Below are positions 47,084-47,843 of a stretch of 64,000 nt of DNA, piece after piece (positions within the stretch are counted from its first letter, which is position 1; each line of letters begins with the position of its first letter). The notes beneath the pieces are model-generated. The model was not told the origin of the DNA. It did no database searches and saw only the letters and a program-made list of their open reading frames with translations. The stretch spans positions 15,190,001 to 15,254,000 of the forward strand of contig OX597825.1 in NCBI GenBank assembly GCA_951406725.2, in the 5' to 3' direction. Both the position numbers and the translations under genes were made by a program. This DNA comes from Octopus vulgaris. Its lineage: Eukaryota.

Positions 47084-47843
47084 AGTAATACTAAGCAATT
47101 AAGGGTTTAGCAACGAATTGCCTCACCACACACCGAATTTAGAAATAGCAGTCAAAGAGTTATAGCTATTCTTTCTACTAAAAGGGAGATCTCAGTAAAA
47201 ACACAGCACTTGAATGGCAAACACAGACAGGTAAGAGAGAATGAAATGACGGCAATCTATCATACAATTTTAAGTCACCTACGGACGTACGTTTCGAAAT
47301 TAAGTTTTAGGAAAGCATAAGAATTAGATAATTATATCTTACCCAACTTCTTTTCTCAGCGTAGGACACTACAATTATGAATAATTGTATTTTAAATTTC
47401 GAGATACTAGAAGGCATCATCTCAACTCAGTATCAGAGCGAGCTAAAAGCCGTTACCAGTATCACCAAATTCAAAGTGTGAATGAAAGTTTGTGTCACCA
47501 GCCCCTTCCCACCCGCGTGTAGCCAAGACAAGATGCTGCGCCATTTACTGGGATGAACTATGGTTATCAGTAACAATATAGGGTGAAATTAATTAATTTG
47601 GAATAATTATTAATTACACCAAGTAGATTTCGGCATGTAAAAGCCTCATTCGAGGAAAATTTAAGTAATACTAAGCAATTAAGGGTTTAGCAACGAATTG
47701 CCTCAGCACACACCGAATTTAGGAATAGCAGTCAAAGAGTTATAGCTATTCTTTCTACTAAAGGGGAGATCTCAGTAAAAACACAGCACTTGAATGGCAA
47801 ACACAGACAGGTAAGAGAGAATGAAATGACGGCAATCTATCAT
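47084..47843 (-). mobile_element. 1.3-mer tandem element (580-bp unit, 180-bp direct repeats) in (TA)n; retrozyme-like or PLE-like
   Basis: 47084-47263 equals 47664-47843 with 3 mismatches; internal HHR-like motif. Confidence 0.8.
47278..47365 (-). ncRNA. HHR-like motif with an extended stem II
   Basis: CCTACG CTGAGAA aa GAAGTTGGGT...ACTTAATTTC GAA ACGTACGT C CGTAGG; core position 8 is non-canonical. Confidence 0.6.

Follow-up and report, generated by a model that had tools for sequence, protein, structure and literature searches.

Octopus vulgaris carries a young family of thousands of dispersed, short, non-coding hammerhead repeats. From the genome sequence we consider it probable that this family spreads by a Penelope-like element (PLE) reverse transcriptase (RT), which would copy a self-cleaved, circularised RNA of ~583 nt into (TA)n tracts. 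One copy lies at 47084..47843 of the window, the 64,000-nucleotide stretch of DNA that was analysed. It consists of a unit followed, at a spacing of 580 bp, by a repeat of its first 180 bp in which 3 positions differ (47126, 47143 and 47183), and it has (TA)n on both sides, in agreement with the original prediction for this DNA. The features of the window copy are the following:

46900..47083, no strand: target tract of (TA)n/(TG)n on the side where the cDNA starts (RNA 3' end); a TA-rich flank stands at 189 of 216 family arm starts
47084..47663, minus strand: one full non-coding unit of 580 bp (family 583 bp); the RNA sense is the minus strand
47084..47088, minus strand: putative RT start site S1, used by the window copy and recurring at 47668; in the family its mode is unit position 5
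47278..47365, minus strand: type I hammerhead, whole
47365-47360 with 47283-47278, minus strand: hammerhead stem I, 6 bp
47354..47359, minus strand: core shortened by a private 3-nt deletion, so that CUGA abuts G10.1 (CUGAUGA-G in the family); 1 genome match
47355-47296, minus strand: hammerhead stem II, 60 nt
47295-47293, minus strand: hammerhead GAA, with the palindromic stem III at 47292-47285 and C17 at 47284
between 47284 and 47283, minus strand: predicted cleavage site at the GUC triplet, in the context GAA-ACGUACGU-C
47558..47574, minus strand: putative RT start site S2, unused by the window copy; family positions 478/485
47581..47717, minus strand: structured domain common to two sister families, the predicted RT-binding site
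47620-47581, minus strand: AU-rich hairpin preceding S2
47717-47707 with 47637-47629, minus strand: helix enclosing S1
47664..47843, minus strand: second, 5'-truncated round (unit positions 1-180), ending ~20 nt before the second cleavage site
47844..47964, no strand: (TA)n tract at the truncated end

The minus-strand hammerhead fold proposed originally, with its 6-bp stem I, palindromic stem III and GUC triplet, was recovered. Its stem II is long as claimed, but measures 60 nt instead of about 55 nt, and the 10-bp closure rich in G-U pairs turned out to be an alternative register: the family closes this stem with a 4-bp GAAA/UUUC helix, in which a two-sided change is found. The core is non-canonical as stated, not through a change at position 8 but through the private 3-nt deletion. 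This shortened core was found once in the genome, while the 3' part of the ribozyme gave 544 exact matches, and the 3 lost nucleotides account for the difference between the 580-bp unit and the 583 bp of the family. With a single ribozyme and a unique core deletion, the window copy is likely a dead 1.3-unit member of the hammerhead-bearing family, and since it ends before a second cleavage site it should be unable to release a monomer. The window also holds a PLE endonuclease fragment (36804-37016, minus strand; 71 aa with 48% identity to the 781-aa protein described below). Other dispersed repeats, at 44547-44820, 46002-46805 and 48760-49000, comprise SINE-like copies in a degenerate state and one element with inverted repeats.

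The genome searched comprised 2.8 Gb in 227 contigs. Using the 760-bp copy as query, 2,454 candidates were obtained, 40 of which were scored and gave 81 matches with 92-100% identity. Exact matches to the motif at unit positions 66-88 numbered 2,341 genome-wide; for this motif and for the ribozyme 3'-part motif counted above, reversed controls gave 0. We are aware of the fact that these are matches of motifs and not loci, so that the family size is a lower bound. Subfamily units are 583, 589, 591 and 594 bp long and multimers reach about 9.8 units. A dispersed multicopy family with such multimers agrees with the earlier retrozyme-like or PLE partial-tandem reading and leaves no room for a locus-specific duplication, which had been named as its refutation. 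The family is non-coding: the longest Met-started frame in a natural trimer has 38 aa, the longest stop-free frame 69 aa. The unit has a GC content of 36%, and the ends are variable, without LTR organisation. Pol III A/B boxes, octamer and TATA patterns were sought in the unit and none was found, nor was a trace of A-to-I editing in family copies (A>G 4.82 versus T>C 4.71 per 1000). Contigs assembled from 4 runs cover the unit, but the RNA status of these runs is a guess and they are no evidence of expression. Two near-identical insertions with common flanks lie 2.7 kb apart (L008 and L009, C11:47596498 and 47599232), explained either by a segmental duplication at this place or by repetition in the assembly.

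Judged by their sequence, family copies carry a putative type I hammerhead with canonical core and a covarying stem II of 60-70 nt. The cores of 173 ribozyme-spanning segments were CUGAUGA (101), CCGAUGA (34), CUGAAGA (29), CUGAGGA (4), CUGAUGG (2) and others (3); a CUGANGA core was present in 134 and an intact 3' core in 159 of them. The CCGAUGA segments form a U4C-core subfamily of 19 loci, which has been amplified and includes the long arrays L151 and L153, and cleavage may therefore be dispensable. Covariation was analysed with 30 distinct variants chosen from 88, whose sequences are related. Pairing holds in 98.4% of their alignment cells and 3 of 23 pairs show two-sided changes, one in stem I (C-G to U-A) and two in stem II (A-U to G-C, U-A to C-G), the latter falling in two helices. 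The number of cells with two-sided changes was above all 500 shuffles, and the number of covarying pairs among the 30 related variants was not above shuffles (313 of 500). Stem II is 60, 61 or 70 nt long in three subfamilies. The stem III loop is GUAC or GUGC in the family and GCGC in a sister family; all are self-complementary if G-U pairs are allowed, and in this they resemble the dimer-type metazoan hammerheads described in PMC4209133.

Folded in isolation, the hammerhead region was not unusually stable (z -0.6 to -2.1 for 4 family-A copies). The circular fold of the whole monomer gave a z of -5.4 in one run and, in a second run, -6.5 for the ribozyme strand versus -1.6 for the other strand. 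The window unit reached -5.8, other subfamilies -5.4 and -7.3, and a PLE terminal repeat +1.0, where the strand and subfamily comparison used 15 shuffles each and indicates structure, not circularity. The weak fold of the isolated motif and the higher-order structure of long arrays would both fit a satellite or minisatellite, spread by recombination or by a Helitron-like DNA rolling circle and bearing a ribozyme-like fold by chance. We regard this as very unlikely, as the monomer fold is strand-specific, ribozyme cores and palindromic stem III are kept in sister families, and the insertions have polar ends, with starts fixed at two sites, truncated 5' ends and inversions that combine these starts (see below). 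An Rfam scan of 40000-55000 did not recover a hammerhead: the 79 matches (E<=1) were microsatellite look-alikes of miRNA models. A hammerhead descriptor found nothing in the window and nothing in 20 shuffles, as expected for the window with its deletion in the core of the copy. Published descriptors are given with spacers of 7-17 nt (PMC8557442), and owing to their long stem II the ribozymes of this family would be missed by short-spacer descriptor searches and by Rfam.

For the analysis of insertion ends, 182 loci were picked by best full-length match, by a ribozyme 22-mer or by the 66-88 motif; after removal of 33 overlapping ones, 149 loci with 216 arms remained. A total of 128 arms start at S1 (unit positions 1-30, mode 5) and 75 at S2 (positions 476-515, modes 485 and 478), leaving 13 starts elsewhere. 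With 203 of the 216 starts at two fixed sites, the circularly permuted starts that had been anticipated were not observed; the pattern is the internal-initiation signature of PLEs. The S2-to-S1 'tail' amounts to ~103 nt. The 5' ends of the arms are scattered at random. While 70 arms are longer than one unit, the longest with 5,710 nt, the median of an 82-arm subset is 283 nt, and insertions are mostly dispersed and truncated. Seen singly, a copy resembles two direct repeats around 400 bp, and a TRIM-like LTR element with the 180-bp repeats as LTRs would account for it. We give this explanation practically no credence, for it is refuted by the variable ends: the length of the overlap varies among copies, 5' ends are random, multimers of 9.8 units occur, inverted arms are common and the window copy is without TG...CA termini. 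Fixed LTR-like ends, the finding that was to speak for TRIMs in the original prediction, do not exist in this family.

Head-to-head inversions were found 63 times, in 51 cases with S1 on one arm and S2 on the other, once with S1 on both, never with S2 on both, and in 11 cases with another start. The S1+S2 pairing in 51 of 52 cases has a p-value of 2e-14 against 0.5. In the subset of 57 loci picked only by the 66-88 motif, and hence not for the ribozyme, 23 of 24 inversions were S1+S2 and no start-to-start joins were found. The S1+S2 inversions are the 'tail at one end' signature of Penelope-like elements, whose insertions are described with an inverted 5'-truncated copy, a tail at one end and a (TA)n bias (PMC8557442). 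The tail is ascribed to two internal RT start sites, and a predicted dimer is described as cutting and extending both strands (PMC11167929). The complete anatomy, namely partial tandems, an inverted 5'-truncated arm, a one-end tail and a microsatellite target, is present in the family. Twin priming in the manner of L1 was rejected because the two arms copy overlapping and not abutting parts of the template.

The template was addressed by following arms across the predicted cleavage site. Position 190 was passed 69 times in the 82-arm subset, and 61 of these passages go on past 213; the end rate at the site was 5.0 per 1000 versus 2.8-5.6 in four neighbouring bins, and all 197 of 197 segments were free of indels there. 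Read-through together with intact sequence at the site excludes a cleaved linear monomer read once. Units within one arm were discordant at 10 of 3537 subfamily-diagnostic sites (0.28%; 51 loci) versus 22% between loci, and opposite arms at 18 of 2036 (37 loci) versus 21%. Counting allele concordance in insertions without long arrays, alleles present in more than 10 loci agreed in 254 of 263 cases for tandem units and in 217 of 229 for inverted arms. Single-locus alleles were mostly discordant (64 of 73), as expected from mutation after insertion. The shared haplotypes suggest a single template haplotype for each insertion, with a bottleneck at the monomer, as would be natural for a circle. 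A circular monomer template thus appears favoured over uncleaved multimers or template jumping, with somewhat better than even confidence on our side.

Cleavage-site read-through fits equally well with a non-autonomous PLE that uses a linear template, either uncleaved read-through transcripts of arrays or RT template jumps between monomers, the ribozyme being a passenger or used at another step. The amplified U4C-core subfamily and the local expansion of arrays would agree with this as well. An anole PLE is described to use unprocessed RNA in vitro (PMC11167929), and of Xenopus retrozyme dimers 1 of 9 is reported as cleaved in vitro (10.64898/2026.07.22.740005). Against it, the concordance between units in 254 of 263 cases, though arrays like L116 are internally mixed, would call for either a monomer bottleneck or masters of great homogeneity. 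If the RT had jumped between templates, scars or ends should tend to mark the cleavage site, and there were none in the 197 segments. Moreover, two ribozymes are spanned, with the cleavage site crossed twice, by only 12 of 82 arms, so that length would have to be regenerated. We consider a linear template possible, although doubtful. Two or more complete ribozymes are found in the arrays L116, L151, L153 and L182, to which the window copy does not belong. Higher-order patterns in long arrays (L116 with periods 2 and 4; L151, L153 and L024) mean that not all tandem length results from RT rolling; local expansion or multi-unit templates contribute. The array at L116:998-6712 comprises 9.8 units in two alternating haplotype blocks of period-2/4 order with 20 variable columns.

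Searching for a candidate enzyme, at least 148 GIY-YIG matches were obtained from 150 scored of 6,136 candidates. A frame of 781 aa combining RT and GIY-YIG was intact in all 16 of the 16 loci fetched for it (L213-L228). Its GIY-YIG domain scored above the Pfam cut-off and RVT_1 just below, and the frame was without an exact match in the protein collection searched. From its CxxCxxC linker, a motif described in PMC8557442, we label the element Neptune-like. It has (TA)n at its end, a 456-bp terminal repeat and a minimal hammerhead of the U3-A8 type, and one copy has a tail of ~38 nt. Most copies of this young family also contain an upstream frame, and TGACGTC/ATTGG repeats are found in the 3' region. 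Comparing the unit with PLE terminal repeats by blastn at 66 PLE-centred loci, the only similarity came from separate insertions into adjacent tracts; 150 of 6,136 GIY-YIG candidates were scored, and other clades may be missed. Octopus Naiad was rejected as partner, as its published consensus (PMC8557442) was without match to 4 short priming-domain motifs. A 25-mer of this consensus occurs once in the genome, and cephalopod Naiads are called long inactive in the same source. At L280 (L049:8-1635) the S1 end of a family copy and the 5' end of a truncated PLE are separated by a few AT bases. This PLE belongs to a second family, which has 65% identity to the first, and its 434-aa frame is unbroken. 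The junction, a single case, is possibly a template switch or an insertion at the edge of a tract.

Two sister families, B (2,025 candidates) and C (1,726 candidates), are 72-82% identical to the family only or mainly around S1/S2, and in all three this region has a similar fold that includes compensated pairs. As a common region with a common fold, the domain around S1/S2 is predicted to bind the RT. Sister family B (L243:1290-1890, L240, L012:3475-3759) has a CUGANGA core, a stem II of ~55 nt and the stem III ACGCGCGU, and its insertions show the same two-start inverted layout. Sister family C (L258:330-1846, L209:290-545) is built of a 556-bp tandem unit with a stem II of ~27 nt; its core UUGAUAA is a U3-A8 variant, like that of the Neptune-like PLE. 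Further unrelated type I hammerheads with a stem II of 26-63 nt were encountered in PLE-centred loci (L190, L191, L194, L204, L221, L225, L267 and L273), the one at L273 with a long stem II within a ~495-bp tandem. Repeats with long-stem-II ribozymes seem to be diverse in this genome.

Under the circular reading, transcripts of two-ribozyme arrays would self-cleave, probably as dimers via the palindromic stem III, and the monomers would be ligated into circles. A trans-acting RT/GIY-YIG protein, here probably of a Neptune-like family, would introduce nicks into the two strands of a (TA)n tract, one DNA end being primed at S1 and the other at S2 of the same template. The RT would then roll past unit length, and long arrays are likely extended on the spot as well once they have been inserted. 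More tentatively, a dimeric PLE protein may prime both ends of one break at two sites ~103 nt apart on the structured domain of one circle and copy both strands at once, in what would be a cephalopod radiation of long-stem-II circular-RNA retroelements. If true, the S1+S2 pairing in 51 of 52 inversions would reflect, at the genome level, a rolling-circle mechanism with two primers used asymmetrically, and one mechanism would account jointly for the tails, partial tandems and inversions of PLEs. That PLEs mobilise animal retrozymes by way of RNA circles is an existing hypothesis, described as supported by co-occurrence and pLTR phylogeny, and the mechanism is said to remain to be elucidated (10.64898/2026.07.22.740005). 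With thousands of young insertions of PLE signature and an intact candidate enzyme, the choice between circular and linear template becomes directly testable. The family is thus a tractable model for the retrozyme-PLE mechanism and for the spread of RNA circles in animal genomes.

By testable features the family appears to work like a non-LTR retrozyme or non-autonomous PLE. Non-LTR retrozymes are now regarded as non-autonomous PLE derivatives with units of 51-972 bp (10.64898/2026.07.22.740005; PMC7229834), a range that includes the present unit. As described for the metazoan ones, the family consists of non-coding tandem repeats with a GC content of 36%, one type I hammerhead per unit and no LTR ends; stem III has two pairs closed off by a tetraloop that is palindromic, and PLEs co-occur. 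Stem II is different, with 60-70 nt compared to the 4-bp canonical or 7-8-bp PLE helix II given in PMC4209133. A further difference is that insertions are mostly dispersed and truncated. The link to PLEs is drawn here from insertion anatomy, and for non-LTR retrozymes from co-occurrence or pLTR homology in the accounts cited. A search for cephalopod retrozymes in mostly open papers, without Repbase/Dfam, found none, and an earlier listing there is possible.

With the Neptune, Poseidon and Naiad PLEs portrayed in PMC8557442 and PMC11167929 the family shares (TA)n targeting, partial tandems, an inverted 5'-truncated arm, a tail at one end and, downstream of the hammerhead, two internal sites at which the RT starts. 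Unlike these PLEs it has no ORF, its unit is without homology to the PLE terminal repeats examined, and its tail of ~103 nt exceeds the 30-40 nt reported for them. The near-strict S1+S2 pairing of arms also contrasts with the anole PLE, for which no strand difference in start sites is described in vitro. Non-autonomous Chlamys elements such as MRC1 are likewise non-coding, multicopy head-to-tail repeats with pseudo-LTRs, but they have 3' sequence in common with autonomous partners, and most Chlamys are depicted without hammerheads (PMC8557442). From TRIMs and plant LTR retrozymes, with their fixed LTR ends and type III hammerhead, the family is set apart by variable ends and by stem I as the open helix. 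What sets the family apart from known retrozymes and PLEs is its extended stem II, the length of its tail and the S1+S2 coupling as measured here.
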